Of a DNA stretch of 64,000 nucleotides, positions 9,225 to 52,289 are shown piece by piece (position 1 is the stretch's first letter; the number at the start of each line of letters is the position of its first letter). The stretch lies in the IMG/VR virus record IMGVR_UViG_3300044974_000806; one strand, 5' to 3'. Origin of the DNA: a virus. A model generated the notes under the pieces. It was given only the letters and a program-made list of their open reading frames with translations, was not told where the DNA came from and did not search any database. The position numbers were made by a program, and so were the translations under genes.

Positions 9225-10064
9225 ATGATAAGTTATATAGGAGGAAAATCAAAAATCGGAAAATGGATAGTACCGTACTATCTTGAAGACATGGAAACAT
9301 ATGTTGAACCTTTTTCAGGTATGTTTTGGTGTTTTTTTAACATGGATTTGGAAAGATACCCAAATCTAAAAAGAGTTGTCTACAACGACTTCAACCCACT
9401 AAACTACAATCTTTTTCAGTGTGTACAAAATCCTGCGGAATTACAACGAGCAATGGATGCGATTACTGTACAACAAGTTGGAGTTGATAATACACCACCA
9501 GAGTTTAGGGAAAAATTTATCAGCTTTCAGGCTGAAATTTTTGGAGAAAACTTCAGCGTACAACCTTATGATTACGTAACGGCAGCAAAGTATGTTTACG
9601 TATTGTCACAAGTTTTTAGTGGAAGTAAACCTGAAACATCTAATTTTATAGACCTGAAGGGTAAGTACCGTTCAAAGTATCTTGCCTTCAGAGACAAGTT
9701 GAGCAAACCAGCATGGGTTGAACATTTTACAAAAATAACGCACGTTGAAAACTTAGATTTTCAAGAGGTTATTGAAAAATATGATTCACCATCAACTTAT
9801 ATCTATTTGGACCCACCTTATTGGAAGACCGAGAACTATTATAGTAATCATGATTTTGACAGAGCGGACCATGAAAGATTGGCAAATGTACTAAATAATG
9901 TACAAGGTAAATTTAGTTTATCTTATTACGATTTTGATTTATTACATCAATGGTTCCCTGAAGATAGGTTTAGATGGGAGAAAAAAGAGTTTGCAAAAGC
10001 TGCTGCGGCAAAAAAAGGTGTAAAACAAAATATGGCTCAAGAACTTCTTATATTGAATTATTAG
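9225..10064 (+). CDS. dam: DNA adenine methyltransferase, D12 class (Dam-like).
   Basis: N-terminal YIGGKSK motif and catalytic IYLDPPYW (DPPY) motif in a protein of about 280 aa. Confidence 0.8.
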   Translation: MISYIGGKSKIGKWIVPYYLEDMETYVEPFSGMFWCFFNMDLERYPNLKRVVYNDFNPLNYNLFQCVQNPAELQRAMDAITVQQVGVDNTPPEFREKFISFQAEIFGENFSVQPYDYVTAAKYVYVLSQVFSGSKPETSNFIDLKGKYRSKYLAFRDKLSKPAWVEHFTKITHVENLDFQEVIEKYDSPSTYIYLDPPYWKTENYYSNHDFDRADHERLANVLNNVQGKFSLSYYDFDLLHQWFPEDRFRWEKKEFAKAAAAKKGVKQNMAQELLILNY

Positions 10065-15979: not shown

Positions 15980-16102
15980 TAAAACAAGACTTAATATTTA
16001 TTGTTGAGGAAATTATAATAAATTTTATAAACAAAACGAATACAATTGTTTGGTAAATAACGAATCTTAGTTGTATTTATAACATAATAGAAATACATTT
16101 TC

Positions 16103-18502
16103 ATGGCTAAAAATATTGTAATCACCCCAAGAGTATCTGTACCCAACATATCATTTGACAATGGAGGGGAAATTACGTTGACGGTGACCCAAGGTGCAAG
16201 GATAAATTTTAATACTTCTTCTCAATCCAATCTACTTTACATTGATATTTCTAACAAAATAATTTCTGTTGGAAATACTCTTAACGTTAAAGATAATTTA
16301 ACCGTTGGCGGAACTCAAGTTATTAATGGAACTGCAAATTGGGTTGGTCCAACAACTGGTATTTTGGGGAGTCAAGGTGCTAAAGGAGGCACAGGGGCTC
16401 AAGGTAGTGTAGGTGAAATAGGGTCTACAGGTGCACAAGGTACTCAAGGACCTAATAATACAACTCAAGGAGCGCAAGGAGCCACAGGAAATGTTCAAGG
16501 TGCTCAAGGACCTCAAGGCGATATTGGAGCGACAGGCCCCCAAGGACCAACAGGTTCACAAGGTAGTTTGGGACCAACAGGTGCACAAGGTAATACAGGC
16601 GCACAAGGTAATACAGGAGCCCAAGGTCATACAGGAGCTCAAGGAGCAACAGGACCAACAGGACCAACAGGAACTCAAGGTAACACAGGACATCCAGGAG
16701 CTCAAGGAGCAACAGGACCAACAGGACCAACAGGAACTCAAGGTAACACAGGACATCCAGGAGCTCAAGGAGCAACAGGACCAACAGGAAACACAGGAGC
16801 CACAGGACCAACAGGTTCACAAGGAGGAATAGGACCAACAGGACCAACAGGTGCACAAGGTAATACAGGTTCAACAGGACATCCTGGTGCTCAAGGAAAC
16901 ACAGGTCCAACAGGGCCAACAGGTAACACAGGACCAACAGGTAATACAGGCGCTCAGGGTTCAACAGGGCCAACGGGACCAACAGGTTCACAAGGAGCAA
17001 CAGGTCACCCTGGAGCTCAAGGAGCCACTGGTACTACAGGACCAACAGGTAATACAGGACCAACAGGTAATACAGGAGCCCAAGGAACAACAGGTCCGAC
17101 AGGACCAACAGGTTCACAAGGAGCAACAGGTCACCCTGGAGCTCAAGGAGCCACTGGTACGACAGGACCAATAGGTAATACAGGACCAACAGGTAATATA
17201 GGTGCTCAGGGTTCAACAGGACCAAAGGGACCACAAGGTTCACAAGGAGCAACAGGTCACCCTGGTGCACAAGGTTCAGGAGGTGCAACGGGAGCACAAG
17301 GTTCAACAGGAGGACAAGGAGCCCAAGGTTCTCAAGGAGGTGTGGGACCAACGGGACCACAAGGTTCACAAGGAGCAACAGGTCACCCTGGTGCACAAGG
17401 TTCAGGAGGTGCAACGGGAGCACAAGGTTCAACAGGAGGACAAGGAGCCCAAGGTTCTCAAGGAGGTGTGGGACCAACAGGAGCCCAAGGTAATCCTGGT
17501 GCAACAGGACACCCTGGTGCACAAGGTGCTACGGGTGTAACAGGAGCACAAGGTTCAACAGGAGGACAAGGAGCCCAAGGTTCTCAAGGAGGTGTGGGAC
17601 CAACAGGAGCCCAAGGTAATCCTGGTGCAACAGGACACCCTGGTGCACAAGGTTCAGGAGGTGCAACGGGTAATCAGGGTGCTCAAGGAGTTGGTGCATA
17701 TCAAGGAGCACAAGGGGCTCCTGGTGTGAGTGCTGGAGGACAAGGAGCCCAAGGAGCTCAAGGTACAAATGGAACTCCTGGAGGACAGGGTGCACAAGGT
17801 GCGATAGGTTTTACACCAGGTACCTCAGGACCACAAGGAGCCCAGGGTGCTGGAGGACCAGGTGGAGGTCCAGGACCAACAGGTGCTCAAGGTAACGTTG
17901 GACCAACGGCAACAACTTGTTATTCCCATTCAGGATGTGCTGGTTCTAGTGTTCTCCAAGCTTGTAATTGCGTTCAAACCGCATTTTATTATCAACAAAC
18001 TTCGTTTAACGACTTCCAAGGAATAAAATATAATAATTTAACCAATTGTCAAAACTCTACTTGTGATTGGAATGGTACTTATGATTATGTTGGTAGTGCT
18101 GCGGCTGCTTATGGTGCTTTAGGTTATAGTTGTGGTAGTGGTGGTACAGGATATCTTTGTGGTGGTTCACCATATTCAGATGAGAGACTAAAAAATGGAA
18201 TTGAGACTCTTAAAAATGCTTTAGAAAACATAATGAAGATTGAGGCGGTTGAATATGATTGGAATGAAAATTTAAGAGAATACGAATATTTCAAAACCCA
18301 ACAAAAATTACATACAATAGGACTTATTGCCCAAAACGTTAGATTATATTATCCTGAAGCGGTAAGAATTAATAATGACGGGTATTATTCAATTGATTAT
18401 ACAAAATTAAATGCTGTGTTGGTAGAAGGTATCAAAGAGCAATCAATATTTATCGAAAGTATCGATAAAGAATTAGATTATATAGAAACAAAACTTAGTT
18501 AA
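16103..18502 (+). CDS. Collagen-like fibre protein 1 with a Cys-rich module and a C-terminal Peptidase_S74 intramolecular-chaperone domain. Putative tail fibre.
   Basis: About 500 aa of uninterrupted Gly-X-Y triplets (GAQG, GPTG, GHPGAQG), then a Cys-rich segment, then [31 protein letters not shown], which is the S74 auto-cleaving chaperone signature. The N-terminus MAKNIVITP is shared with the next two genes. Confidence 0.8.
16380..17900. repeat. Tandem 9-nt-periodic GXY-coding DNA repeat array with nested longer repeats.
   Basis: Blocks of 54-120 nt recur, for example the ...CAAGGAGCAACAGGTCACCCTGG... blocks. They also generate long spurious antisense ORFs. Confidence 0.85.
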
Positions 18503-20694
18503 TGGCTAATATTATAATATATCCCCAAGGTAATGTAGGAAATACGAATCCACAAGTTGTTTTCAATGACGGTTCTACCACATTGCAATTCAATGTTGGA
18601 GTATCGACATTAACTCTTTCATCTAGTACTGTATCTTCAGGTGTTCAATTAGGACCACAAAATGTTGTTGTTTCAGGCGCTAGTGCGCAAGGTACAAGTA
18701 TCTCAGAAGGAAACGTATACGTTGGTGGGGTTAAAATGATTAACTATGACGCAACTTGGGTTGGTCCATCATCAGGAATTGCGGGGGCACAAGGACCAAC
18801 AGGTGCACAAGGTAATACAGGTGCACAAGGTAACAAAGGAGGACAGGGTTCTCAAGGAGCAACAGGAAGTTTAGGAGCGGATGGAGCTCAAGGGCCAATT
18901 GGACCTCAAGGGTCTCAAGGAAATGTTGGTTTCCAAGGAACACAAGGTTTCCAAGGACCAACAGGACCAACAGGTGCTCAAGGTGCTAATACAGGGGCGC
19001 AAGGAAATACAGGAGCACAAGGAGGACAAGGGGCTCAAGGTACCCAAGGTGCGAACACGGGAGCTCAAGGAAACACAGGTCCAACAGGACCAACAGGTGC
19101 TCAAGGGACACAAGGAGCCAATACAGGTGCTCAAGGAAACACAGGTCCAACAGGACCAACAGGTGCTCAAGGGACACAAGGAGCCAATACAGGTGCTCAA
19201 GGACCAACAGGACCACAAGGGGCTCAAGGACCTACTGGCCCGACAGGGGCACAAGGTCCAACTGGACCACAAGGAGCTCAAGGTTCGACAGGTGCTCAAG
19301 GTACACAAGGTGCTAATACAGGAGCCCAAGGTGCTTTAGGTTCTCAAGGAGCACAAGGACCAACAGGACCACAAGGAGCACAAGGTACAACAGGACCACA
19401 AGGTACAACAGGACCACAAGGTGCTCAAGGTACACAAGGGGCTAATACAGGTGCCCAAGGTGCTTTAGGTTCTCAAGGAGCACAAGGTCCAACAGGACCA
19501 CAAGGTGCTCAAGGGACAGGAGGACCACAAGGTACAACAGGACCACAAGGTGCTCAAGGGTCTCAAGGAGGAAGTACAGGAGCCCAAGGTGCTTTAGGTT
19601 CTCAAGGAGCACAAGGTCCAACAGGACCACAAGGTGCTCAAGGGACAGGAGGACCACAAGGGCCAACAGGTATATCAGGAGCTCAAGGTACACAAGGAGC
19701 CAATACAGGAGGACAAGGAAATGTTGGTAATACAGGAGCTCAAGGTGCTGTAGGGTTCCAAGGAGCTGGAGGTCCAGGAGGACCACAAGGTACAACAGGA
19801 CCACAAGGTGCTCAAGGGTCTCAAGGAGGAAGTACAGGAGGACAAGGAAATGTTGGTAATACAGGGGCTCAAGGCGCTGTAGGGTTCCAAGGAGCTGGAG
19901 GTCCAGGAGGACCACAAGGTTCTCAAGGACCACAAGGAGCCCAAGGTTCTCAAGGTGGAAATACAGGTGCTCAAGGACCTTTAGGAAATGTTGGTGCTCA
20001 AGGTGCTGTAGGGTTCCAAGGAGCTGGAGGTCCAGGAGGACCACAAGGTTCTCAAGGACCACAAGGAGCCCAAGGTTCTCAAGGTGGAAGTACAGGTGCT
20101 CAAGGCGCTCAAGGTTCTCAAGGAGACGGTGGAGGTACTTTATCTGGACCACAAGGAGCTCAAGGAGCCCAAGGTGCGGTAGGTACACCTGGTGCAACAG
20201 GAGCCCAAGGTGCGGCAGGTAACAATGGTACAACAGGAGCCCAAGGTGCTCAAGGACCCTCAGGTGGAATACCAACAGGTAATACAGGAGCACAAGGTGG
20301 ACCAGGACCAACAGGACCACAAGGTGCTCAAGGTTCACAAGGACCACCATCAGATAGAAGATTGAAAGATAATATCAAGAAACTTGAAAATGTTATTGAT
20401 ACTGCAAAAAAAATACAAGGGGTTTCTTTTGAATGGGATGAAACTCATGAAAAAATATCAAAACATGAGTATATCCACTTCAAGTCTGCGTTTTCTGGAA
20501 CTGCAATTGGATTCATTGCTCAAGAGATAGAAAAAGTTGTCCCTGATGTTGTATTTACAAGTGACGATGGATTCAAATCGGTTGAATACGGACAATTAGT
20601 TAGTATTGGTGTTGGAGCGGTTCAAGAACAACAAACAAGGATAGAATCTATTTATAAAAGAATAAACAAACTTAAAGAAGTAATAGGTGGCTGA
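18502..20694 (+). CDS. Collagen-like fibre protein 2 with a C-terminal Peptidase_S74 chaperone domain.
   Basis: Paralogous N-terminus MANIIIYP, a long GXY array, and [31 protein letters not shown]. The start overlaps the upstream stop (TAATG). Confidence 0.8.
18780..20340. repeat. Tandem GXY-coding DNA repeat array.
   Basis: Repeated GCTCAAGG / CAAGGTGCTAATACAGG units and near-identical blocks of about 120 nt. Confidence 0.85.
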
Positions 20695-22771
20695 GAATAT
20701 AATTATAACGCCAGGTAGTGGTACAATCGATTTTTACGATTCAGGTAATACTTTAACGACATTAATTGTTGAATCAGGTAGCTTAAAATTTAAAAGAGCT
20801 GGGGGAACATACCTTGCTTTGGATAATACATATCCAAACTTTAAAGTTACTCTTGGTAATTTATATGTAGGAAACGCACTTCAAAATAACTTTGGAAATG
20901 TAATTAACTCTACAGGTTGGTTGGGAAATCCATTACCAACAGGTCCACAAGGTGCTCAAGGTTCACAAGGTGCTCAAGGTTCACAAGGACCCACAGGACC
21001 ACAAGGAGCCCAAGGTAATCAAGGGGCTCAAGGACCAACAGGGGCTCAAGGACCAGTTGGACCAACAGGTGCTCAAGGGCCACAAGGAGCTTTAGGTCCT
21101 CAAGGACCAACAGGTCCTCAAGGAGCACAGGGAGGACAAGGTGCACAGGGAAACCAAGGAGCACAGGGAAATACAGGTTCACAAGGAACTACAGGAGGAC
21201 AAGGAGCCCAAGGAACACAAGGACCGACAGGACCTCAAGGAGCCCAAGGAACTACAGGAGGACAAGGAGCCCAAGGAACACAAGGACCGACAGGACCACA
21301 AGGTGCTCAAGGAACAGGAGGTACCCAAGGAGCAACAGGACCAGTGGGTCCGCAAGGGTCACAAGGACCAACAGGACCACAAGGTGCTCAAGGAACAGTT
21401 GGACCATCACCAACAGGTGCTCAAGGGTCTCAGGGACCTGCAGGAGGACAAGGAGCTCAAGGTCCAAAAGGACCACAAGGTTCACAAGGACCTGTAGGAC
21501 CTCAAGGTTCACAAGGTGCGGTTGGAGCATCACCTGTAGGACCACAAGGGGCCCAAGGAACTGCAGGAGGACAAGGAGCTCAAGGTCCAAAAGGGCCACA
21601 AGGTTCACAAGGACCTGTAGGACCTCAAGGTTCCCAAGGAGCAGTCGGAGCATCACCTGTAGGACCACAAGGAGCCCAAGGACCTGGTGGAGTACAAGGA
21701 GCTCAAGGTCCAAAAGGACCGCAAGGTTCACAAGGACCAACAGGACCTCAAGGTTCCCAAGGAGCAGTCGGAGCATCACCTGTAGGACCACAAGGAGCCC
21801 AAGGACCTGGTGGAGGGCAAGGAGCCCAAGGTTCACAAGGACCTCAAGGTGCTCAAGGTCCAAAAGGACCACAAGGTGCCCAAGGTAATACGGGAGCATC
21901 ACCTGTAGGACCACAAGGAGCCCAAGGACCTGGTGGAGGACAAGGAGCCCAAGGTTCACAAGGACCTCAAGGTGCTCAAGGTCCAAAAGGACCACAAGGA
22001 GCCCAAGGTAATACAGGAGGTTCACCAGGAGGAGCCCAAGGTGCTCAAGGTGGTGGTGGAGGCCAAGGAGCTCCAGGACCTATAGGACCTCAAGGTGCTC
22101 AAGGACCAAAAGGACCACAAGGAGCCCAAGGTAATACAGGAGGTTCACCAGGAGGAGCCCAAGGTGCTCAAGGTGGTGGTGGAGGCCAAGGAGCCCAAGG
22201 AGCCCAAGGAGCAAAGGGTGCTCAAGGGGCTAAAGCGGTACCAGGAGCTCAAGGAGCTCAAGGAGTTCAACCGACATATGCTCAAGGTGCACAAGGTGCT
22301 CAAGGTATTAACAGAGGGGCTGGACCAACAGGTGCTCAAGGAGGAACAGGACCTGACAACCCTGGACCACAAGGTGCTCAAGGACCAGGAGGAGGTCCAG
22401 GACCAACAGGTTCACAAGGAGCAACAGGGTCGCCAGGACCTTCAGATGTTAGATTAAAGAAAAACATTAAAAAAATTGAAAGTCCGTTATCTAAGTTATT
22501 AAAATTAAGAGGTGTTTCATTCATTTGGAATTCCAAAAATCCAAACTTAGAGAATACAAAAGATATTGGTTTTGTGGCACAAGAAATTGCTCACGTTATA
22601 CCTGAATTAGTATTTAAAGAAAATAACGGAAAAGATTTATATAAAGTAAAATATGGTGATATAATAGCACTTTGTTTAGAAGCTGTTAAAGAACATGAAG
22701 AAATGATAAATTCTAAAGAAGAACGATTAAGTAAATTAGAATATAAGGCAAAAGAAAAGGGGTTAATCTAA
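20687..22771 (+). CDS. Collagen-like fibre protein 3 with a C-terminal Peptidase_S74 chaperone domain.
   Basis: GTG start giving MAENIIITP, a GXY array rich in GPQGAQG and GSPGGAQG, and [30 protein letters not shown]. It overlaps the upstream gene by 8 nt. Confidence 0.75.
20935..22440. repeat. Tandem GXY-coding DNA repeat array.
   Basis: Repeated GGACCACAAGG / GTTGGAGCATCACCTGTAGG blocks. Confidence 0.85.
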
Positions 22772-22782
22772 ACCCCTTTTTT
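22755..22782. terminator. Bidirectional rho-independent terminator between convergent genes.
   Basis: AAAA-GGGGTT-aatcta-AACCCC-TTTTTT. The flanking A-run and T-run let it function on either strand. Confidence 0.6.
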
Positions 22783-23640
22783 ATTTATAATATTTTCTAT
22801 TTCTTCTTTGGTGTTGTACAACATTGTTAAGAATCTCGGCCAAATTTCAGGATTAAACTTTTTAATCAATTCAATATAAGTTTTGTAATACGGTTCTTCT
22901 TCACCAGTATTTAATAGTTCAATTGCATCAGGGTAATCTAAAGATATATTTGCAAGTAGTTTAGAAACTCTATTATCGTTAACACCTTCATCATTTATTC
23001 TACGTATAATATCCAAAGAAAGATTTGATAATTGTTCTCCTTTACCAAAATAATTCAAAATATTATTCAAAGATTTTAATAGATACTTTTTATTTTCTAA
23101 GTTTCTTAATCTATTTGCTCTTCTTGAAAACTCATTTACCAAACCTTCAAGGAATTCATTTGTAATTGCCCTGAATTCTATTTTGTGACCCCAATAATCT
23201 TTATCAGATTTCTCATTGTATGTAGATTGATATTTCATATTCATTCTATTTGATTGAGATGGGTCTGTGGCGTGCAACATTTCATGATATATGGTTAAGA
23301 ACAGATTTTTCTTTGAACCATACATTTTCGGATTTAACTGTATTACCAAATCCATAGGGTCTCTTGAACCTTTTGGTCGCGTATCTAACTCACCAAAATG
23401 AGGGTATCTTGGGTTGATATAAATTCTAACTAATGCATCTGTTCCATCAGAAGTTTTAAATTGAAGATGGTCAACTTGAGTTTTTTTATCATACTTTACA
23501 TTTCTATTTGACCATAACTTATCAGTCAACTCCACCAACTTTGTGTAAGTTTCTGGGTCAAACTTGAATCGTTTTTGTTCGGTAAGAACTGAGGATAGTA
23601 TGTTTATAAATTTAATCATCTGTCTAAATCTGTACTCCAA
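22768..23640 (-). CDS. Hypothetical protein with an HExxH motif. Possible zinc metallopeptidase.
   Basis: [15 protein letters not shown] contains HEMLH. It is otherwise unrecognised. Confidence 0.4.
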
Positions 23641-24407
23641 TTAATAGGAATTCTTTTTGGTTTAATTTTTTTCGAATAACTATCAAAAGTATCTACGAAA
23701 GGTATCTGAGCTTTTTTGATGTCTTTAATTCTTTTCATCTCATCACCAATACCTGTAGATAAATAGGCTTGAATCTCATCATCCACCACATTTTCACCAT
23801 AACCCATCCCTGTTATTTTTCTTGAGATAATATCTCGTGTGTTAGGTGAAAGGTTTTCTATGTTAACCATTTGTTTTCTTTTATATATTGGCGACGAAAA
23901 CCATAAACCATGCGCAACTTCATGGAATATAAGTGAAGTGTCTTCACCATCACTTTGGTCTATCCCAATTAAATAAAAGTTTTCAGAACCAACCTTTTCT
24001 CTAATTGTATCAACAACACTAAACATAATAAGGTCGTAGAAGTTAAGGTCGGGGATTTTAGTTATACATGATTCTATTGAGGTACATGGTATATTATAGC
24101 CTGCCCAATCCTCATGATAAGAAAAGTAATCTTTTTTAGTTTTTTCTTTATAGAATTTAACATAGTCATACCATTTAAAACCTTTACCTCTGAATGTGTC
24201 TGAATCTGATTCATAGAACTCTTGGTATCTCATGAATACTCTGGCTCTTAACTTGTCGTCTTTGATAACAAGTGCAAAGATACCAGGTAACATTTCAAAC
24301 AACTCAATCTGAGAAAGGACATTCTTAATGTTTTTTGGCGGAGTTTTTGGAGGGGTAAAACCTCTCTGTTCTTTCAATATGGATAATATTTTATTTGTTA
24401 ATTCCAT
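23616..24407 (-). CDS. Hypothetical protein with an HExxH motif. Possible zinc metallopeptidase.
   Basis: SLIFHEVAHGLWFSSP contains HEVAH. It is adjacent to the other HExxH protein. Confidence 0.4.
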   Translation of the reverse strand: MELTNKILSILKEQRGFTPPKTPPKNIKNVLSQIELFEMLPGIFALVIKDDKLRARVFMRYQEFYESDSDTFRGKGFKWYDYVKFYKEKTKKDYFSYHEDWAGYNIPCTSIESCITKIPDLNFYDLIMFSVVDTIREKVGSENFYLIGIDQSDGEDTSLIFHEVAHGLWFSSPIYKRKQMVNIENLSPNTRDIISRKITGMGYGENVVDDEIQAYLSTGIGDEMKRIKDIKKAQIPFVDTFDSYSKKIKPKRIPINWSTDLDR

Positions 24408-25411: not shown

Positions 25412-25719
25412 ACTAATAAATACAAAAAAAGGGACAAATTTTTGTCCCTTTCACTAATTTTGGAGAAATCTGTTATTTAGAAGATTTGTTTACGTTGTAA
25501 TACTTCTCAACAGTTTTCTTAATTGCAGCCTTAATACTCTCTGATTGTTGTTGTTTTACTAACTGAGCAGCTTGTTGTTGCTGTTGAGTTTGAGGCTGTG
25601 ATTGATTGTTATTTTTGCATCCGCATCCCATATTGATATATTTTTGTTTTGTTTATGTCTATAAATAGTTCCTGACTCTAATTATAATATACAAAAGATA
25701 TTTATTAAATAAAAGACTA

Positions 25720-27477
25720 ATGGATTTTTTAAAATTGATACAAGAAGGTAGGGTTGAGGATTTCAAATCCAAGTATAGTAATAAGTTTTCACCAGAACAA
25801 CTTAAAAGGATTGTTGATTCAGTTCCTCATAAATATTTGATGTGGGTTGGTAAAACGTTTGATGGAATCAACTTTGAAGAAAACTTTCCAAAATTATATA
25901 ACTCATTAAACAAGTTCACAAAACTATCAACAAACCTACCAAAAACAGACATCAATCAGTATCAAAATTTAGATGACCTTCTAAATGCTATTTCTGTTTA
26001 TGAAAATAGAGAAAGAAGAGATGTGAAAAAAGTTGAGGGTGGTAATGTTGTTTATGACGATGGTAAACTATTCGTTGTTAATCCGTTAGATTATAAAGCC
26101 TCTTGTTATTACGGTAAAGGCACCAAATGGTGTACCGCTGCTGAGACAGACACACAGTTTAAAAAATACAACGAAGATGGTAAGTTGTTTTATATTATAG
26201 ACAGAACCAAACCAACAAGTGACCCACTATATAAAGTTGCGTTATTAAGAAAATTTGATGGGGAAAAAAAATACTTTGATGCAAAAGATGAATATGTAAA
26301 ATCAGGATGGATTTTTGGTACAAAACAATTGAATGATTTGGATAAGACTGTGGACCAATACTTACAAAGTGAGTTTGCGGAGCAGTTAAAGATATTCAAC
26401 GACATAGAACTTGCAAAAAAAGAAAAAGAAAGATTACGTAAATTGGAAATTAATAGGATATTAAACCAAAGACGTGAAGAAGCACAAGAAAGAAGATTGG
26501 ACGGAGATTGGGATTTGAGTAATCCTGATATTGATGAGATTGGACTCAAAGCTCAGGCGTTATTAGAATATTTGGTGGATAATGGGGACGCTCAAGTTTT
26601 AACTAATGAACAAAAAATCGAGATTCAAAGAATCAAAGACGAGATAGAAAGACTTAATACGGAGTATAATGATAGTGAAGATGTAAGAACTGACCTTTTA
26701 ACTCAAATAGAAGAGTTAGAAGATGAATTAGATGATTATGATTCTTACATTGATGTTTATAATATTATACCCGCTGGCGGTTTTTACGATACAACTGAAT
26801 TTGAAGTTATTGATAGTGAGGTTGACAACAACCGATATGCTGTTGGTACAGATAGTGAAATGCAATCAAGTTGTGAGGAGTATATTGAAAACCTTATAGA
26901 TGATATAGGTTATGAAGGGTTTAACGCTGGTTTTGCTAAAGGTTATTTAGATGAAGATGCAATTGCAAATGAAGCTGAAGACATTTATGAAAATGATGTA
27001 AGGGATAATCCTGAGGCATATTTTGATGATAGTCAAAGGATGTTGTCTGATGCTCAAGAAGAAAGAATTAGAATTTTGGAATATACTATTCAGAAGGTAA
27101 ACAAAACAATAGACCAGTTCGAATCAATGATGGACGGGGAAAATGATGATGCAATCCAAGAAAAAATAGAAGAACTACAGGAAAGATTGGAAGAGTATGA
27201 TTCTGAGATTGAAGAAATAAAGGACGACCCTGAAGGTGATTTTCCTGATGAATTGATAGATGATAAAGTAAGTGATTTGGTTAGTGATGTAAAAAGTGAC
27301 CCTGAGTGGTTTTTATCTGAATTTGGTCTTAATTGGGATGATTATGTAAATAAAGAAGAGTTTATTCAAGGAGTTATAGACGCTGACGGTTATGGACATA
27401 CAATCAATAGTTATGATGGAAGTGCTGATGAGATATATGTAAATGACCAGTTATTTTACGTAATGAGAATTGATTAA
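25720..27477 (+). CDS. Large acidic coiled-coil hypothetical protein.
   Basis: 585 aa protein with an extended Glu/Asp-rich coiled-coil centre. Confidence 0.5.
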   Translation: MDFLKLIQEGRVEDFKSKYSNKFSPEQLKRIVDSVPHKYLMWVGKTFDGINFEENFPKLYNSLNKFTKLSTNLPKTDINQYQNLDDLLNAISVYENRERRDVKKVEGGNVVYDDGKLFVVNPLDYKASCYYGKGTKWCTAAETDTQFKKYNEDGKLFYIIDRTKPTSDPLYKVALLRKFDGEKKYFDAKDEYVKSGWIFGTKQLNDLDKTVDQYLQSEFAEQLKIFNDIELAKKEKERLRKLEINRILNQRREEAQERRLDGDWDLSNPDIDEIGLKAQALLEYLVDNGDAQVLTNEQKIEIQRIKDEIERLNTEYNDSEDVRTDLLTQIEELEDELDDYDSYIDVYNIIPAGGFYDTTEFEVIDSEVDNNRYAVGTDSEMQSSCEEYIENLIDDIGYEGFNAGFAKGYLDEDAIANEAEDIYENDVRDNPEAYFDDSQRMLSDAQEERIRILEYTIQKVNKTIDQFESMMDGENDDAIQEKIEELQERLEEYDSEIEEIKDDPEGDFPDELIDDKVSDLVSDVKSDPEWFLSEFGLNWDDYVNKEEFIQGVIDADGYGHTINSYDGSADEIYVNDQLFYVMRID

Positions 27478-30598: not shown

Positions 30599-30997
30599 AT
30601 GAAAATCCATGTTGAAGGAGACCCAAAGCTAAAGAACAATTCAGGTAAACAATATTCAATGTTTATCGGAAGATGGCAACCATGGCACAATGGACACAAA
30701 TGGTTAATTGACCAAAGATTAAATGAAGGTAAGAATGTTCTTATTTGTATAAGAGATATTGAACCAAATGAAAAGAATCCATTTACTGCGGAGGAGGTTG
30801 AGGCAAACATTAAACGTGAGTTGTGGCAACTAATTGGAAATGAAAGAGTTAAGGTTATGATTATACCTGACATCGAATCTGTCAACTTTGGTAGGGGAGT
30901 TGGTTATGATATAATTGAACACATACCACCACAAGAAGTTTCAGATATATCTGCAACAAAGATTAGAGAACAATTAAAAGAAGAAGGTAAATTATGA
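30599..30997 (+). CDS. HxGH-motif nucleotidyltransferase, NMNAT / cytidylyltransferase-like.
   Basis: FIGRWQPWHNGH resembles the GRFQPFHxGH motif of archaeal-type NMN adenylyltransferases and cytidylyltransferases. Confidence 0.55.
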   Translation: MKIHVEGDPKLKNNSGKQYSMFIGRWQPWHNGHKWLIDQRLNEGKNVLICIRDIEPNEKNPFTAEEVEANIKRELWQLIGNERVKVMIIPDIESVNFGRGVGYDIIEHIPPQEVSDISATKIREQLKEEGKL

Positions 30998-31848
30998 TTG
31001 AAATAAATAAGATAATTAATGGAGATTGTATTGAGGAAATGGGTAAAATGCCAGAGTCATCAATTGACCTTTTGGTTACATCACCACCTTATAACGTTGG
31101 AATTGACTATGATACTCACGATGACAATCAGTCCATGGAAGATTATTGGCAATTTACTGAGGATTGGTTGACTCAATCATTTAGAATACTGAAGGATGAC
31201 GGTAGAATTGCTATTAACATTCCTTATGAAGTTAATGTACAAGACAGAGGAGGAAGAGTATTATTCATGTCTGAATTTTGGACGATAATGAAAAAGGTTG
31301 GATTTAAGTTTTATGGACTTGTTGACCTTGATGAGAACTCTCCACACAGAAGTAAAACCACCGCTTGGGGTTCTTGGATGTCACCGTCATCACCATATAT
31401 CTATAATCCAAAAGAGTGTGTTATCCTTGCTTACAAGAAAGATAGAATCAAAAAAGTTAAGGGAGAACCTCAATGGGTTGCAGAAGTTGTTGATGTTGAA
31501 CAAGAAGACGGAACCATAAAAAAGAAGAATGTTTATCAAGATGAAGACAAGAAAGAGTTTATGAGTTTAGTGTACGGACAATGGGAATACTTTGCAGATA
31601 CTAAACAACAAACCAAAGCCACATTCTCAATGGACATTCCAATGAAAGCTATAAAAATTCTTACATACAAAAATGATATTGTTTTGGACCCATTCTGTGG
31701 TTCAGGAACAAGTATGGTTGCGGCTGTTGTTGGTGACCGAAGATGGGTTGGAATTGAATTAAGTCCAAACTATTGTGATGTTGCAAGAAAACGAGTTCAA
31801 CACTTTGTTGACCTTAAAAAACAAGGAGTTTTAAACTTCGGTGAATAA
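30994..31848 (+). CDS. DNA methyltransferase of the N6_N4_Mtase family (SPPY motif). Orphan methyltransferase.
   Basis: DLLVTSPPYNVGIDY (motif IV) and C-terminal LDPFCGSGTSMVAA (motif I), in beta-class order. No adjacent restriction endonuclease is recognisable. Confidence 0.8.
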   Translation: MIEINKIINGDCIEEMGKMPESSIDLLVTSPPYNVGIDYDTHDDNQSMEDYWQFTEDWLTQSFRILKDDGRIAINIPYEVNVQDRGGRVLFMSEFWTIMKKVGFKFYGLVDLDENSPHRSKTTAWGSWMSPSSPYIYNPKECVILAYKKDRIKKVKGEPQWVAEVVDVEQEDGTIKKKNVYQDEDKKEFMSLVYGQWEYFADTKQQTKATFSMDIPMKAIKILTYKNDIVLDPFCGSGTSMVAAVVGDRRWVGIELSPNYCDVARKRVQHFVDLKKQGVLNFGE

Positions 31849-36795: not shown

Positions 36796-36828
36796 TTTAT
36801 CTGAAGTTCTTTAATATAAAAATATATC

Positions 36829-36899
36829 GCGAGATAGTAGCAGCGGTAGCTCGCAAGGCTCATAACCTTGAGGTCGGGGGTTCGATTCCCTCTCTCGCA
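36829..36899 (+). tRNA. tRNA with anticodon CAT (Met, or Ile if lysidinylated).
   Basis: Acceptor stem GCGAGA/TCTCGC, anticodon stem-loop CAAGG-CTCATAA-CCTTG and T-arm GGGGGTTCGATTCCCTC. No 3-prime CCA is encoded. Confidence 0.75.
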
Positions 36900-36986
36900 A
36901 CTAAGAATAGGTTGACTACGTTAGTCGTAAAATTACGGTTCCCTATTTTTTTTTACAAAGAGTTTGACAAACTGAAAATGTTTTTC

Positions 36987-38178: not shown

Positions 38179-39096
38179 ATGAATGTAATTATGGTAGCTG
38201 AGGACATCAATAAAGATGGCTCATTCAAACAGACAAAGGGGGAAATCATGTGTACGGTTTCCAATCTTGCATTCATAAAACATTATTATCCTGACTTTCA
38301 CACAATACTTTTTGTAGATAAATTTACCAGACCATATTATGAATCGTTCGGTATTACCGAACTGTTCGATGAGGTTAATGATATCATGCTGAACGAACAT
38401 GTTGATATCGATAAAAATGTGTTTTGGGCGGCGGGTAAACTAATGGCTCAAAGAATAACACCAGGACCAACATTAACTATGGATTTGGATTTTTGGGTTC
38501 GAGCTGACATATCAATGTTTGGAATTTTTGATTCAGATATTTCTTGTCTTTGGGTTGAAGAAATAAATGAAAAGTATTACCATAGACATGAGGATGCATT
38601 AAAAAACTCAAACTTAAAAATTGAATGTGATTGGGACCAATATGGAATAAATGTTTCGTTTCTTTATTTAAAAGATGAAGAATTTAAAAATACATATTGT
38701 GATTTATCAATAGAATACATGAAATCAATGTACGGTAAAATACCAAACAATCTTTCATTTGAAGATAAAACAAAATACATTTTATTTGCGGAACAATATC
38801 TTTTGAATCAAATTGCCAAAAAATATGATAAAAAAGTTAAAGTTCTTGTTGATGATTTTTATGACATTACCAATTTGAAACATGTTGAATCCATTGGTGT
38901 TCATATGAAAACTTGTCCAAAATACATTTATCATATGGGTAACCACAAACACGATTACAGAGCAAAGAATAGTTTTGCCCTTGAAGGAATAGAGATATTT
39001 TATAAAACAACCACATCGGTAATAACCGATGATAGGTTTATTAGAGTAATAAATAACATTTATAACAAATCAGAATATGAAGGGTGTTTTTGTTAA
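38179..39096 (+). CDS. Hypothetical protein, paralog A. Possible GT-A-like glycosyltransferase with a DxD motif.
   Basis: A hydrophobic strand followed by DLD (LTMDLDFWV). It shares FWAAGK and MDLDF blocks with the next gene. Confidence 0.45.
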   Translation: MNVIMVAEDINKDGSFKQTKGEIMCTVSNLAFIKHYYPDFHTILFVDKFTRPYYESFGITELFDEVNDIMLNEHVDIDKNVFWAAGKLMAQRITPGPTLTMDLDFWVRADISMFGIFDSDISCLWVEEINEKYYHRHEDALKNSNLKIECDWDQYGINVSFLYLKDEEFKNTYCDLSIEYMKSMYGKIPNNLSFEDKTKYILFAEQYLLNQIAKKYDKKVKVLVDDFYDITNLKHVESIGVHMKTCPKYIYHMGNHKHDYRAKNSFALEGIEIFYKTTTSVITDDRFIRVINNIYNKSEYEGCFC

Positions 39097-40027
39097 TTGG
39101 ACAAAACCATACGAAGAAAGAAAACGTTTGAGGGGGCACGCCTTCAAAATACACAGAGAACAGTTATCTGAGGAATATACAACAACAGATGAAGAGTTGT
39201 TATTCACAATATTATCTGTTGGATACTGGAAAAAATTTAACGGTCCTACCAAACTTTATACGGATAAAAAAGGTTTGGCTTACTACGCCAAGAATAACAT
39301 GTTGGACTTATGGGATGAAATTGATACTCATACCCTGGAGAACTATAAAGACATTGACCCAGCTCAGTTTTGGACATCAGGTAAATCGTATTGTATAGGA
39401 AAAGAACAAGTGCCATTTTGTTTTATGGATTTAGATTTTATGGTTATGGAGAAATTACCTCAATGGGTTTTTGAGTCTGAAGTAACCATACCATACTGGG
39501 AAATACCAAGAGGATATTATTACCCTAATGAGGACCAATACAAAGAAATAAAACATTGGCAACCCCCATCTGACTATTCATATAAGATGATGATTCCAAA
39601 CACATCTTTTTTATACATTGGGAGTGACAAAGTCCAATCCGAATACCTCAAAGACCATCTCGAGGCGGTTGACACCAAAAATGAAATACCTGAATGGTTT
39701 TGGTTAGTTACTGACCAAGGTTTATTTGGACAAGTTCTTAGGAGGTTCAATGTCAAAACTAATACTCTTACCGATAAAGTATTTTTGTCTGACCACGAAG
39801 GTTATGAAGGTAAAGTCGGTGAAGCAACTGGATTTTACTATTTGACCAACGCGGATTATTCCAAAGACAACCTTAAATGGTGGCACGTATGGACAAGGAA
39901 AGTTTTATACAATCAAGACGAAAATGTTAGAGTTTCTGACTGCAAAGAGTTCTACCAACGAATTATGGATGAACTACCTAAGTACAAACACATACTAAAT
40001 AACCCTCGTTTGGTGAGGTATAGATAA
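39077..40027 (+). CDS. Hypothetical protein, paralog B of 38179..39096.
   Basis: FWTSGK and FMDLDFMV align with FWAAGK and TMDLDFWV of the upstream gene. This looks like a tandem duplication. Confidence 0.45.
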   Translation: MKGVFVNWTKPYEERKRLRGHAFKIHREQLSEEYTTTDEELLFTILSVGYWKKFNGPTKLYTDKKGLAYYAKNNMLDLWDEIDTHTLENYKDIDPAQFWTSGKSYCIGKEQVPFCFMDLDFMVMEKLPQWVFESEVTIPYWEIPRGYYYPNEDQYKEIKHWQPPSDYSYKMMIPNTSFLYIGSDKVQSEYLKDHLEAVDTKNEIPEWFWLVTDQGLFGQVLRRFNVKTNTLTDKVFLSDHEGYEGKVGEATGFYYLTNADYSKDNLKWWHVWTRKVLYNQDENVRVSDCKEFYQRIMDELPKYKHILNNPRLVRYR

Positions 40028-40632: not shown

Positions 40633-41790
40633 TTATTTTTTCCAAGAGTTTCTATCATAATCCCCAAGTTCAAATACTTGGGCATAATTGTAATAAACCA
40701 TGTCTGCAATATTTTGATTATATAATGACCTCCAATCAAAATTTGTATAATCAGAAGAATTTTTTTTAATTAAACAATCTTTTTCCAATTCTCCAGACTT
40801 ATAATACTCTGTATGTCTAACATGAGGAATCTTTAAATAATCATCTAACATAGACTCAACCCTAATGATGTAATCTGGTTTTCTAATTGTGTGGTCATAA
40901 CATGGAAAACGTTGAACATCGTGAATTTCTTCATATAAATAAGAGTATAAAAATTGTTCAAATTGTTCAGATGTCCATTGTTCTTTATCTGTAGATGCCT
41001 TGAAATAAGACACTATCATGTTATATGGGTTCCTTAATGTTGTTATAAAAGATAATTTTTCGTGCCCATAACAGAAAATACAATGATGATGATTAGGGTT
41101 TTCCCTTTGATAAGGTTTCAAAAAACCTCCCTCTTGTTTGTAAAGTTCAAATCCCAATTTTGGTAGTATGAATGACGCTGAAGTTGAGGCGGTTTTTGGA
41201 GGTGTCCACGCGAATATTTTTTGAGTTAAATTCGCTAAAACTAAATTTTCTTTTGGGTATTGTATCTTTTCTAAAGACACCCAATTTACTAAAGAATGAC
41301 GAACCCCCTCTGTAATTGGGGTCACCCTATGTAGTATATCTGAAAAAAATATATGTAAATTACCAACTCCCCTTTCAAATTTAATTTCATTTCCGTTTAC
41401 ATCTTTAAATTCTAAATCACCACCTTCGTATTCATTGTTTAATTGTATAACAATTGAACAATACCTATTTTTATTTTTATTATTATCAGAATCAATATGC
41501 CAACCATAATATTCTCCGACGCCATATTGTGTAAGTTGATATCTACTTAATCCTGTTAACGTATTATCTTTTATTTTTATGTTTTGATTTAAAGTATTTT
41601 TTAATCTATTATCGATTGAATCAATAGTGTCTATAAATGCAACAGAAGATTTTCTCAAATTGTTATCTAATTTACCACCATCAATTAACGCTGGTTCCAA
41701 TTTTAACTTTGACAAGTATGTGTCCAATATTTTTTTACATTCATCTTCTGATAAGAAATTTTTTATTGTAATTGGTTTGCGGTCCTCCAT
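40633..41790 (-). CDS. Bifunctional-looking protein with an N-terminal P4H-like 2OG-Fe(II) oxygenase domain fused to a C-terminal sulfotransferase domain.
   Basis: N-terminal half: FLSEDECKKILDTY, HIDSD (HxD), RYCSIVIQLNNEYEGGDLEF and LHRVTPITEGVRHSLVNW (distal His and RxS). C-terminal half: PPKTASTSASF (5-prime PSB-like PKTGTTS motif) and LRNPYNMIVSYF (3-prime PB-like RNPxDRxxS motif). Confidence 0.6.
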   Translation of the reverse strand: MEDRKPITIKNFLSEDECKKILDTYLSKLKLEPALIDGGKLDNNLRKSSVAFIDTIDSIDNRLKNTLNQNIKIKDNTLTGLSRYQLTQYGVGEYYGWHIDSDNNKNKNRYCSIVIQLNNEYEGGDLEFKDVNGNEIKFERGVGNLHIFFSDILHRVTPITEGVRHSLVNWVSLEKIQYPKENLVLANLTQKIFAWTPPKTASTSASFILPKLGFELYKQEGGFLKPYQRENPNHHHCIFCYGHEKLSFITTLRNPYNMIVSYFKASTDKEQWTSEQFEQFLYSYLYEEIHDVQRFPCYDHTIRKPDYIIRVESMLDDYLKIPHVRHTEYYKSGELEKDCLIKKNSSDYTNFDWRSLYNQNIADMVYYNYAQVFELGDYDRNSWKK

Positions 41791-49497: not shown

Positions 49498-49926
49498 ATG
49501 GTTAAAGATAGAGAAGGGAAACAAAGTACAACTGTAATAAGAAGAAGGTCTCCAGAATATATCAAGGAGAAAATGATTGAGGATGTGTTGGAACATTTTG
49601 ATTTTGATAAGTGCCAATACGTTATGAAACAATTGAATTGGCAATGGTATGGAAGAGGTATTCCAACCATTGACGAATTAAAATATTCTGCAAGACAAAG
49701 ATTGGAATCTGCAATTGCGGGTGCTTTGGATAGAAAAGATACACTTCCATTAAATTCTTATTATTTTTCTTCAAGCGGAGGATTAAAGGCCACCGCATGG
49801 AGAAACAGATACTGGCATTTAGAAGCCATTAACTTAGAATTCGTCTTGACCGAGTGGGATTCGGATGGAGATTATGTTATAGATAAGAAAAATGAAAACA
49901 AAACTACCGAGCGCAATAATTTATAA
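49498..49926 (+). CDS. Hypothetical protein.
   Basis: 142 aa. Confidence 0.35.
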   Translation: MVKDREGKQSTTVIRRRSPEYIKEKMIEDVLEHFDFDKCQYVMKQLNWQWYGRGIPTIDELKYSARQRLESAIAGALDRKDTLPLNSYYFSSSGGLKATAWRNRYWHLEAINLEFVLTEWDSDGDYVIDKKNENKTTERNNL

Positions 49927-51139
49927 CTTTCATACTGAAGGTGAAATAAAATTACAATCTCAAATTTATTGGGAAGAAGGACTACAAGATGATGTGGTCC
50001 TTTATTCCATTCCATTCAATGAAACCGTTGTTGAGGACTACACCAAATACAGACCTGACTTAATAATTTCTGTTGGAAAGGATATACACATACCTCACAA
50101 CCAACTTAAACAAAGATATGTAAAAGTTGATGAAGGACTTGAAGATTCGGTAATTGCAAATATAATCGCTTGTCAGACCGTTTTTAGAAACTGTAAAGTT
50201 GTTCGACCAAAATTTTCAATATTCACACCAGTATATAAAACAGGCGAAAGAATTCTAAGAACATATCGAGGACTATTAGAACAAAGTTTTTGGGATTGGG
50301 AATGGGTTGTAGTTGACGACTCTCCCGATGACGACACATGGAAACTACTCAAGGAGATAGAATCCAAAGATTACAGAGTTAAGTTACATAGAATTAATCC
50401 AATATCTGGTGGAAATGTTGGTTTAGCCAAACACAGAGCCGCAATGTTATGTGATGGTGATTGGTTAATAGAATTAGACCACGATGATTATCTTACCAAG
50501 CAGGCTCTATCCACATTAGAGGAAGCTATCAACAAGTTCCCTGATGCTAAATTCCTTTACAGTGAATGTTCTGAAATATATGATGACGGTGGATTCAAAA
50601 CCTATGACCATAGATGGGATGGTGATTGGTATGGTAGAGAAGATAATTTCTTTGATTTTGGTTATGCTGGCCATTCACTTGTAAAAGTAGATGATAGAGT
50701 TGTAGTTGCTCATCATTATCCTGATGTTAATCCTTTAACAATACGATTCAATATTAGTATGCCAAACCACGTAAGAGTTTGGGAAAGAAACTTATATCAT
50801 GAGATTGGAGGACATAACAAACATACGCCAGTTGCTGATGACTTTGAAATTATTGTTCGTACATTTTTAAAGACCAAAATGGTCCACATAAAAAAAGTAT
50901 TATACTTTCAATATAACAACAGAAACAGTACTGTGGATAATAATGCAACTGACATAAATAGAAGGGCAAGATTAATCAGAGATTATTACGACAAAGACAT
51001 ACACAACAGAATAATTGAATTAGGATTTGAAGATTGGTGTTGGGATGAAGAAAGACAACACTCACATAAATTTCAAAACCATCAACCCGTCAAAAAATTT
51101 AATGACGAAGAACAAGTAATGAATTACATTTATGAATAA
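49892..51139 (+). CDS. Family 2 glycosyltransferase (GT-A fold).
   Basis: FSIFTPVYKTGERILRTYRGLLEQSFWDWEWVVVDDSPDDDTWKLL follows the GT2 pattern. Confidence 0.65.
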   Translation: MKTKLPSAIIYNFHTEGEIKLQSQIYWEEGLQDDVVLYSIPFNETVVEDYTKYRPDLIISVGKDIHIPHNQLKQRYVKVDEGLEDSVIANIIACQTVFRNCKVVRPKFSIFTPVYKTGERILRTYRGLLEQSFWDWEWVVVDDSPDDDTWKLLKEIESKDYRVKLHRINPISGGNVGLAKHRAAMLCDGDWLIELDHDDYLTKQALSTLEEAINKFPDAKFLYSECSEIYDDGGFKTYDHRWDGDWYGREDNFFDFGYAGHSLVKVDDRVVVAHHYPDVNPLTIRFNISMPNHVRVWERNLYHEIGGHNKHTPVADDFEIIVRTFLKTKMVHIKKVLYFQYNNRNSTVDNNATDINRRARLIRDYYDKDIHNRIIELGFEDWCWDEERQHSHKFQNHQPVKKFNDEEQVMNYIYE

Positions 51140-52289
51140 AAGAGCTAAAATTGTTATGAACTCGATGGTAGGTAATGAAGCCAGAACCATCACAAGAATG
51201 TTAGAATCAGTTGCTCCACACATTGACTATTGGGTAGTTCAATGTAATGGTAATGATGAGACAGAGAAAATAATCAATGATTTCTTTAATGAGAGAAACA
51301 TACCAGGGTTTACCTATCAAGTTGAATGGAATTTCCCTGGATGGAATAGAGACCACACCTTACAAGAATGTTTAAAGGCAGACCACGGATGTGATTGGAT
51401 ATTAAGAATGGATGCCGATGAAACACTTGAAATAGATGAAGATTTTGATTGGGGTATTTTGGATAACACATCAATACAAAGTTTTAATGTTAATGCTTAT
51501 TCCAATGACACAAAGTACTTTAGAACTTGGATGTGGAATGCAAAACTACCATGGTTTTTCCAACATGACAAAAGACATGAAACAATACACTTACCTAATA
51601 TTTCAGAAGATTTTGAAAGAGTTAATTTACCTGAAAGTTTCAGACACAAAGTATCTCAAGATGGTGAAACGTGGTACGTACCAAGAAAGTTCTTGAGAGA
51701 TGCATTGGAACTTGAAATTGACAAAGTTGTTGGATATAAAGTATTAGAAGACCATTACCATCTTTGGTATGTTGCAAAAAGTTATTCTGATTGTTATGGA
51801 AATCCTAACGAATTACCTTTTGGTAAATCACACTCAGATGAATATGCAAGAAGGTCTATATGGTATTTTGAAAAGTTCTTAGAAACCGTACATAATTGGA
51901 GAAACCGTGGCGATGAGATAAAGAGAGAAGACGAGATGGCTTACTATGGGTTAGTTTTAATGGCTATGGCATATAATTTCATTGGTGACTATACAAAATC
52001 TGATGAATGTTTTACTAACGCTGGATTATTCTGCGGGGATAGAAATGAACATTTATTGAATTGGATTATCATATTAGAAAAGAATGGAAGATATGAAGAA
52101 ATTATACCTATTATTGATATAATGGAAGAACCATCAAGAGTTAATCCTTTTCCTAATAAAACTTTTTTAATTGAAAATAGGGCTTACTATAACAGTAGTA
52201 GTTTCCTTAAAGAATTTAGAGAGAGAATTGAAAAAAGGTTAACTGAGCATGTTGTTAACATGACAAGCGTTAAGTTTGATTTTAAATGA
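51132..52289 (+). CDS. Glycosyltransferase-like protein (GT2-like N-terminal domain).
   Basis: IVMNSMVGNEARTITRMLESVAPHIDYWVVQCNGNDETEKII resembles the GT2 N-terminal beta-alpha-beta region with the DxD-equivalent region. Confidence 0.5.
   Translation: MNKRAKIVMNSMVGNEARTITRMLESVAPHIDYWVVQCNGNDETEKIINDFFNERNIPGFTYQVEWNFPGWNRDHTLQECLKADHGCDWILRMDADETLEIDEDFDWGILDNTSIQSFNVNAYSNDTKYFRTWMWNAKLPWFFQHDKRHETIHLPNISEDFERVNLPESFRHKVSQDGETWYVPRKFLRDALELEIDKVVGYKVLEDHYHLWYVAKSYSDCYGNPNELPFGKSHSDEYARRSIWYFEKFLETVHNWRNRGDEIKREDEMAYYGLVLMAMAYNFIGDYTKSDECFTNAGLFCGDRNEHLLNWIIILEKNGRYEEIIPIIDIMEEPSRVNPFPNKTFLIENRAYYNSSSFLKEFRERIEKRLTEHVVNMTSVKFDFK

Follow-up and report, generated by a model that had tools for sequence, protein, structure and literature searches.

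The 64,000-nucleotide stretch of viral DNA analyzed here (IMG/VR record IMGVR_UViG_3300044974_000806, the whole of which we refer to as the window) appears to belong to an uncultured jumbo phage and carries three tandem paralogous genes (genes 1 to 3, positions 16103 to 22771), each encoding an N-terminal domain, about 500 residues of collagen-like Gly-X-Y triplets and a C-terminal Peptidase_S74 (S74) chaperone domain. The domain architecture itself is already known, collagen stalks with a self-cleaving S74 domain being on record in phages and other viruses. What is new is a conserved triad of such genes whose collagen lengths, repeat periods and repeat-unit numbers track each other without homogenization of their sequences, along with the N-terminal domain family and the Cys-rich tip of one chain. 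The reading we favor, and to which we give about an even chance, is that the triad encodes three co-operating, equal-length, dispensable accessory virion fibers, each homotrimeric and all produced from one jumbo phage operon.

Length-matched collagen chains in a conserved triad

The three open reading frames (ORFs) lie where they had originally been predicted, all on the + strand, with the following domains (nt, nucleotides; aa, amino acid residues):

16103..18502, + strand: gene 1, tip-bearing chain, 799 aa, ATG start
16103-16357, + strand: gene 1 N-terminal domain, aa 1-85
16358-17908, + strand: gene 1 collagen, aa 86-602
17909-18175, + strand: gene 1 Cys-rich module with 8 Cys, aa 603-691
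18176-18499, + strand: gene 1 S74 chaperone, starting at Ser692
18502..20694, + strand: gene 2, blunt chain, 730 aa, ATG start
18502-18774, + strand: gene 2 N-terminal domain, aa 1-91
18775-20349, + strand: gene 2 collagen, aa 92-616
20350-20691, + strand: gene 2 S74, starting at Ser617 (junction: collagen ...QGPP, then S74 SDRRLK...)
20687..22771, + strand: gene 3, blunt chain, 694 aa, GTG start
20687-20941, + strand: gene 3 N-terminal domain, aa 1-85
20942-22441, + strand: gene 3 collagen, aa 86-585
22442-22768, + strand: gene 3 S74, starting at Ser586 (junction: collagen ...SPGP, then S74 SDVRLK...)

Across each collagen stretch the only stop-free frame is the coding frame, the other five containing 4-39 stops. 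The overlaps between the genes, on which the original prediction had based a tight coupling, are genuine: genes 1 and 2 share 1 nt at TAATG, and genes 2 and 3 share 8 nt at GTGGCTGA. The GTG start of gene 3 gives the N-terminus MAENIIITP, which matches the MAKNIVITP and MANIIIYP of the other two chains.

About 11 distinct lineages (the window, L003, L005, L009, L023, L024, L025, L027, L037, L044, and L048) keep exactly three collagen/S74 genes. In all 11, one chain has a variable module of 81-91 aa with 6-8 Cys between collagen and S74, and in the other two the collagen leads directly to the catalytic Ser; the gene with the tip comes second in the array of L037. The N-terminal domain and the S74 subtype are conserved and specific to each array position. 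As the pattern of one tip and two blunt chains is found in every lineage, the triplication is older than the divergence of these phages.

Between genomes the collagen length varies from 394 to 765 aa, that is, up to two-fold. The lengths for genes 1, 2, and 3 in each genome, in aa and with runs of at least four triplets required, were as follows:

L023: 417, 430, 416
L025: 433, 433, 425
L027: 483, 502, 480
Window: 490, 525, 472 (517, 525, 501 under a looser definition of a run)
L048: 519, 493, 501
L024: 523, 510, 533
L005: 586, 605, 582
L037: 681, 663, 664
L009: 677, 700, 669
L044: 765, 762, 724
L003: 394, 498, 435 (the poorest match)

The mean within-genome coefficient of variation (CV) of the three lengths was 3.3%, compared to 17.5% when lengths were permuted among genomes, and pairwise correlation coefficients were 0.96-0.99. 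None of 20,000 permutations gave a CV as low as that observed, a figure that is not a true probability as the lineages are related. Between L005 and L009, the pair with the most similar fiber genes of those compared, the collagen lengths differ by +91, +95, and +87 aa for genes 1, 2, and 3. Triplet counts are nearly equal in five genomes (222/224/223 in L009, 195/195/193 in L005, 139/138/136 in L023, 144/140/141 in L025, and 216/221/219 in L037). The higher-order repeats follow suit, with units of 42, 43, and 41 aa present in 7.6-8.4 copies each in the window, and units of 39, 39, and 37 aa in 13.7-13.9 copies each in L044. In most other lineages the tip-type and gene-3-type chains have units of 21 aa (7 triplets) and the gene-2-type chains units of 22 aa (7 triplets plus one residue), in similar numbers.

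Recent gene conversion was considered as the cause of the length matching and rejected, because the paralogs are no more alike than the orthologs: the collagen DNA of paralogs within one genome is 64-71% identical, the same as between orthologs of different genomes, and contains no high-identity tracts. Independent short-read assemblies of this phage do not agree fully in repeat number: gene 1 is shorter by exactly one unit (126 nt) in L014, and so is gene 3 (123 nt) in L015 and L016, with gene 2 constant. These differences may reflect either polymorphism in the population or collapse of repeats during assembly, so that copy numbers are either uncertain by about one unit or polymorphic. Such noise could dilute a correlation between lengths but would not generate one.

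The usual gene order around the array (genes named by family or by product length in aa, with those on the - strand marked) is DUF932, 564, 118, thioredoxin, glutaredoxin, 248 (-), genes 1-3, 290 (-), 263 (-), 334 (-), 585, and 259. In two relatives, L028 and L039, the three fiber genes are missing and the 248-aa gene is followed by the 290-, 263-, and 334-aa genes, with a gap of only 90 nt at the fiber position; in L002, both the fiber genes and the two neighboring genes are missing, and the 248-aa gene is followed by the 334-aa gene. The interval between the 248- and 334-aa genes (15980-24407 in the window) thus has a nested pattern of presence and absence: most lineages have five genes there, L028 and L039 have two, and L002 has none. 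Its flanks are 39-84% identical at the protein level. The number of fiber genes is three or none, never otherwise. As the array is missing from three relatives, it is dispensable at this locus. A scan with the N-terminal domain gave no match on the contigs that lack the array, but the same scan missed known positives.

These observations bear on the original proposal that the genes encode three fibers with different tips forming a multivalent host-range apparatus, that is, three independent receptor-binding tail fibers that broaden host range, which we now consider improbable. Tandem paralogous fiber or spike genes are a common route by which phages acquire several specificities, the gene 1 tip is hypervariable, and the best PHROG families are annotated as tail fiber (E values down to 3.5e-121, covering only the collagen and S74 parts). 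However, a tip is found on only one of the three chains in all 11 lineages, the copy number is fixed at three or none and the lengths are co-constrained. The array is also missing from three close relatives with otherwise the same gene order, so it is not an essential receptor-binding device, unless a replacement is encoded elsewhere in the genome. The fixed number, the absence in relatives and the co-variation in length argue for one co-functioning unit rather than three interchangeable specificities.

Domains of the three chains

The Pfam Collagen profile (PF01391) matches genes 1, 2, and 3 with E values of 5.5e-57, 1.3e-48, and 1.5e-40, respectively, in agreement with the predicted 500 or so residues of Gly-X-Y in each chain. 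The triplets had been described as uninterrupted, which proved incorrect: Gly-X-Y runs cover 95%-98% of a 501-525 aa span (the longest run, in gene 1, has 133 triplets), and we counted 5, 13, and 11 breaks in genes 1, 2, and 3. Those in gene 2 are mostly periodic, with one additional residue (GANTG) per 43 aa, and those in gene 3 are mostly of two residues per 41 aa. The tracts are poor in Pro and rich in Gln, Thr, and Ala.

A motif, GHPGAQG, recurs in the gene-1-type chains (at aa ~180-530 of gene 1 in the window, and in gene 1 of L027 and L048) and is absent from the other two chains; in gene 1 of the window it accounts for 10 His residues in the X position. Elsewhere in the window, at 40633-41790 on the - strand, there is a gene for a 385-aa 2OG-Fe(II) oxygenase (PF13640), the best solved relatives of which are prolyl 4-hydroxylases of Bacillus anthracis (5iax, 3itq, and 5hv0; E ~7e-8). 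This enzyme could hydroxylate the collagen-like fibers. A close homolog of the prolyl-4-hydroxylase-like gene was not found in the related jumbo phage contigs with the method used.

The C-termini of all three chains match Peptidase_S74 (PF13884) above the cutoff of 22 bits, with scores of 47.9, 51.9, and 51.4 bits for full-length profile matches (1-57/58) at aa 692-755 of gene 1, aa 617-684 of gene 2, and aa 586-642 of gene 3. The predicted signatures are present, namely the dyad motifs SDERLK, SDRRLK, and SDVRLK, with catalytic Ser and Lys intact, and the terminal motifs VEYDW, VSFEWDE, and VSFIWN. When searched against the PDB, a profile built from 12 S74 domains (those of the window and three related lineages) matched S16 gp37 (6f45, E 1.7e-15), a tail fiber (8jov, 4.4e-11), the MYRF ICA (7dc3, 3.5e-10), and the GA-1 neck appendage chaperone (3gud, 0.008). 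The S, D, R, and K of S-D-x-R-x-K are invariant in the 12 aligned orthologs; in a set of 33 proteins the Ser and Lys at positions i and i+5 are kept in every one, with the Arg variable (SDEALK, SDVNLK, SDKKIK). The dyad residues align to the mutated Ser position and K592 of the MYRF chain 7dc3. Cutting at the Ser by a Ser/Lys dyad has been established experimentally for the S74 domain (PMC3742440). As the catalytic Ser and Lys are invariant, self-excision is the expected outcome for these chains too, and it would leave the triple helix as the C-terminal end of the gene 2 and gene 3 products, as had been proposed. A C-terminus resembling this domain is found in more than 1,000 records of cultured phages, and among the matches listed most are annotated as tail fiber and the nearest are in T4-like cyanophages. 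An AlphaFold2 model of gene 1 aa 585-799 (the Cys-rich module and S74), based on a two-sequence alignment, had a mean predicted local distance difference test score (pLDDT) of 35, too low to be usable.

The N-terminal domain shared by the three chains, which had been described as conserved, is indeed present in each (85-91 aa), but the copies are weakly alike, with 32-36% identity and pairwise BLASTP E values of 5e-6, 6e-5, and 0.095. A profile built from the three domains recovers members of all three types, and in a word-indexed search against 5.8 billion sequences it retrieved 20 proteins, all of which were short fragments. No hydrophobic N-terminal signal sequence was visible by eye in any of the three proteins.

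Only gene 1 has residues between collagen and S74; in genes 2 and 3 the last collagen residue is followed immediately by the S74 serine. The Cys-rich module that fills this position in gene 1 had been credited with about 12 Cys, and we counted 8 (aa 606-686). In all 11 lineages the first Cys of the tip lies 1-6 residues past the last collagen triplet, and in seven of them the last directly precedes the Ser. The tip is highly variable between lineages and the S74 domain of the chain that bears it is conserved. Searched alone, the module had no PHROG match even at E <= 1, and only three sequences among 1.84 billion representatives scored, one being a true relative and the other two spurious low-complexity matches. 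Neither the tip nor the N-terminal domain has known relatives, and the tip is essentially unique to this lineage. The Cys-rich knob of gene 1 would be the likely ligand-binding end.

Proposed assembly of the chains into fibers

If the triad encodes three co-operating homotrimeric fibers, the S74 domains of three copies of a chain would associate at the C-terminus, fix the register and start triple-helix formation from the C-terminal end. Each S74 would then excise itself by cleavage at the Ser of S-D-x-x-x-K, with the Lys at position i+5 as partner, as in endosialidase, T5 pb1 and related fibers. The mature products would be collagen rods of ~143-150 nm (computed at 0.286 nm per residue; computed lengths across the four lineages measured are 113-200 nm), attached to the particle through their N-terminal domains of 85-91 aa. 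The gene 1 fiber would end in a small, fast-evolving Cys-rich knob and the fibers of genes 2 and 3 in blunt triple-helix ends, and these blunt rods may act as spacers or provide lateral support or avidity through the surface of the helix. Selection would keep the three rods of each phage equal in length. That the array has been lost in relatives suggests an accessory role. In this scheme we infer the trimerization, the cleavage, the homotrimeric state, the attachment to the virion and the role in adsorption.

Several known systems resemble parts of this scheme. The S74 domains of K1F endosialidase, the GA-1 neck appendage (3gud), T5 pb1 and S16 gp37 (6f45) are, as here, C-terminal and have the S-x4-K dyad; however, in the solved examples S74 follows a beta-helix or a globular receptor-binding domain, whereas here two of the three chains set it directly after collagen. 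The L-shaped tail fibers of T5, formed by pb1, are likewise dispensable accessory fibers. The annotated tail fiber of cyanophage S-CAM9 (AOV60402.1, 1830 aa) has the same order of collagen-like, globular and S74 parts as gene 1, and its S74 domain shares 41.7% identity with the gene 3 one. It differs in that its collagen, short at 59 triplets, sits within a much larger multi-domain protein, its tip of ~160 aa is not Cys-rich, and it is encoded by a single gene rather than a triad. Collagen repeats fused to a C-terminal endosialidase chaperone have also been described in predicted fibers of polinton-like viruses (PMC12220804). These share Collagen and a C-terminal Peptidase_S74 with the chains described here but come from elements of eukaryotic viruses, some have an adenovirus-fiber N-terminal domain, and no length-matched set of three genes has been reported for them.

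Several points weigh against three accessory virion fibers. Placement on the virion or tail is putative, and no capsid, tail or baseplate gene was identified among the 44 neighboring ORFs scanned in the 64 kb. The N-terminal domain, which would be the anchor, had no match in Pfam, PHROGs (even at E <= 1) or cultured phages, and its AlphaFold2 model (21-sequence alignment) had a pLDDT of 55 and was unusable for a fold search. Two fibers without a distal domain would be odd for receptor binding. The number of genes is always three, which is the number of chains in one triple helix, and the match in triplets, within 1% in several genomes, is tighter than the equal reach of independent flexible fibers would need.

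The last two points are those that would be explained if the three products were instead the A, B, and C chains of one heterotrimeric collagen fiber, as in C1q, which we regard as possible but rather unlikely. C1q, too, is encoded by three adjacent paralogous collagen genes of matched length, and in procollagen the C-propeptide is a C-terminal domain that selects and registers the chains and is then removed, a function like that of S74 here. No C1q/TNF head or fibrillar-collagen C-terminal domain was found here with Pfam, and removal of the domain would be autocatalytic. In such a fiber, which as a mechanism we hold just as tentatively, diverged self-excising S74 domains would determine the selection of chains and their one-residue stagger, and the 81-91 aa Cys-rich module would loop out as a single, monomeric, disulfide-closed knob at the tip of the rod, a loop which the Cys close to both ends of the module (the start in all 11 lineages, the end in seven) would allow. 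Besides the constant number of genes, whose packing and overlaps make roughly equimolar synthesis plausible, a heterotrimer is favored by the nearly equal triplet counts in the five genomes listed above, by repeat-unit numbers that are equal even where the unit size differs (as in L044) and by the lack of any sign of gene conversion between the chains. The in-phase Gly lies three residues before the Ser in gene-2-type chains and two residues before it in gene-3-type chains in nine of the 11 genomes (the offsets are swapped in L048 and both are three in L044), a difference which equals the one-residue stagger needed by neighboring chains of one triple helix. The C-terminal helix is, in addition, acidic in all tip-type chains (-2 to -4) and of charge 0 to +3 in all gene-2-type chains.

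Conversely, the gene-2-type chains have one extra residue per seven triplets (13-28 per chain) that the others lack, and the lengths are mismatched by ~100 aa in L003 and by 25-40 aa in L044 and the window. Between assemblies of this phage a single gene can differ in length by one unit (42 aa or 41 aa), which, if real, would mean that mismatches are tolerated. By inspection, two of the three chains share the same phase of the first Gly relative to a conserved Trp, and as the orthologs are related, the conserved patterns of charge and offset represent few independent events. To our knowledge, the solved S74 fibers and spikes and all characterized bacterial and phage collagens are homotrimers, which also counts against a heterotrimer; we know of no heterotrimeric collagen outside animals and no hetero-oligomeric S74 chaperone, so an ABC fiber, if true, would be the first of each.

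A further reading, to which we attach only a slim chance, places the proteins outside the virion, either as released or host-surface collagen mimics made during infection (adhesion or biofilm factors, for example), or with S74 remaining permanently attached at the C-terminus. The surroundings of the genes contain no identified structural module, and the best NCBIfam matches are the bacterial collagen-like adhesins Scl1, Lcl, and Scl2, which have long Gly-X-Y tracts of similar composition (poor in Pro, with much Gln, Thr, and Ala). However, these scores are below the curated cutoffs (322 vs. 400, 182 vs. 500, and 179 vs. 325) and come from the Gly-X-Y repeats only; unlike in Scl1 and Scl2, inspection found no signal peptide or LPXTG motif, nor was there a membrane segment. 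In Scl proteins the trimerization domain is N-terminal, and here it is C-terminal. S74 domains whose dyad is intact are typical of phage fibers and spikes.

The operon and its genomic setting

The tight packing of the three genes supports their being in one operon, the boundaries of which are plausibly a promoter-like site in the 123-nt gap upstream and a terminator-like hairpin downstream:

15991..16019, + strand: promoter-like site TTAATA-17-TATAAT, 5' of gene 1 (consensus match only)
16071..16081, + strand: TTGTATTTATA, within a conserved motif upstream of gene 1
22753..22782: bidirectional terminator-like hairpin with a 12-bp stem and T runs on both strands

Around the array 21 promoter-like sites were found, compared to 13.1 +/- 4.2 in shuffled sequences, with no clear regional enrichment. 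The motif GAATACAA...TTGTATTTATA...ATAGAAA is kept upstream of gene 1 in four lineages (16030-16100 in the window). Its 11 matches in the window (vs. 5.7 +/- 2.6) do not amount to a significant enrichment, and we rejected it as a shared late-promoter motif for this reason. A copy with one mismatch is located at 25415-25425, just 5' of a minus-strand gene that starts at 25411. The hairpin covers the stop codons of two convergent genes, gene 3 and the minus-strand gene at 22768-23640, and its counterpart is conserved in L003 and L005.

The GC content of the three genes (0.46-0.49) stands out from that elsewhere in the window (~0.32), and a foreign origin of this GC-rich block was considered and rejected. 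In the collagen parts GC at the first and second codon positions is 0.73-0.86 and at the third position (GC3) 0.11, compared to a GC3 of 0.22-0.27 in neighboring genes, and the dominant codons (GGA, GGT, CAA, ACA, and CCA) end in A or T. The rise in GC is therefore a consequence of amino acid composition, and the codon choice indicates that the genes are native to an AT-rich genome.

The same phage was found in at least 24 JGI metagenome contigs, and the exact gene 1 protein also occurs in the NCBI assembly GCA_043530455.1, in which the contig breaks inside gene 2. Public JGI annotations of this phage (L014-L017) miscall the collagen ORFs, listing antisense or out-of-frame ORFs in their place, such as a 302-aa minus-strand ORF at 19442-20350 and a 152-aa ORF at 18881-19339; a 110-aa S74 stub is named "putative lipoic acid-binding regulatory protein." It is because of such incorrect ORF calls that database homologs of the N- and C-terminal domains are nearly all fragments of 70-200 aa.

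Related viral contigs in IMG/VR reach 317-321 kb and are phage contigs. A megablast search of the window against cultured phages gave no match, and an exact 45-mer was found neither in IMG/VR nor among the GTDB species representatives. The window is densely coding and many ORFs have no family match; a few match PHROG families of unknown function, and those identified include thioredoxin, glutaredoxin, DUF932, DNA methyltransferases, endonucleases and one tRNA-Met. Over its first 138 aa, the 585-aa product of 25720-27477 (+ strand) resembles EST35_0205 of phage PA5oct, which is annotated as structural from electrospray ionization tandem mass spectrometry (ESI-MS/MS) and is one of a run of virion proteins so detected. 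Relatives are also encoded by other Pseudomonas jumbo phages of ~285 kb and by Salicola phage SCTP-2. This neighbor is the only hint from the gene context that the three chains may be tail fibers.

The two convergent neighbors of the array on the - strand, 22768-23640 (YHEMLHA) and 23616-24407 (FHEVAHG), have an HExxH motif that is invariant across four lineages and are possible zinc metallopeptidases; the former scores weakly against Peptidase_M91 and SprT-like profiles. That L002 lacks all five genes had suggested that these proteins were part of the fiber system. This was rejected, as L028 and L039 keep both without the fibers and no collagen gene lies within 10 kb of 22 distant homologs of the 263-aa protein in other huge phages, so that a linkage is unsupported.

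Other features of the window are as follows:

9225-10064, + strand, and 30994-31848, + strand: DNA methyltransferases (phrog_56; N6_N4_Mtase, E 1.2e-33)
36828-36901, + strand: tRNA-Met (CAT)
38179-40027, + strand: two adjacent DUF6734 paralogs
49892-53392, + strand: sugar-related cluster, with family-2 glycosyltransferases at 49892-51139 and 51132-52289, then a UDP-galactopyranose mutase at 52286-53392 (PF03275, E 4.7e-77; ~60% identical to mutases of Streptococcus suis phages)

Owing to broken annotations in metagenomes such as those of this phage, fibers of this type are under-counted in protein catalogs. If the three chains form homotrimers, the triad would be a natural case of co-selection for length among phage fibers, and the shared length could relate to the dimensions of the tail or particle. 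If they instead form a heterotrimer, the triad would be a genetically encoded system for registering ABC collagen helices, of interest to collagen biophysics and protein design.

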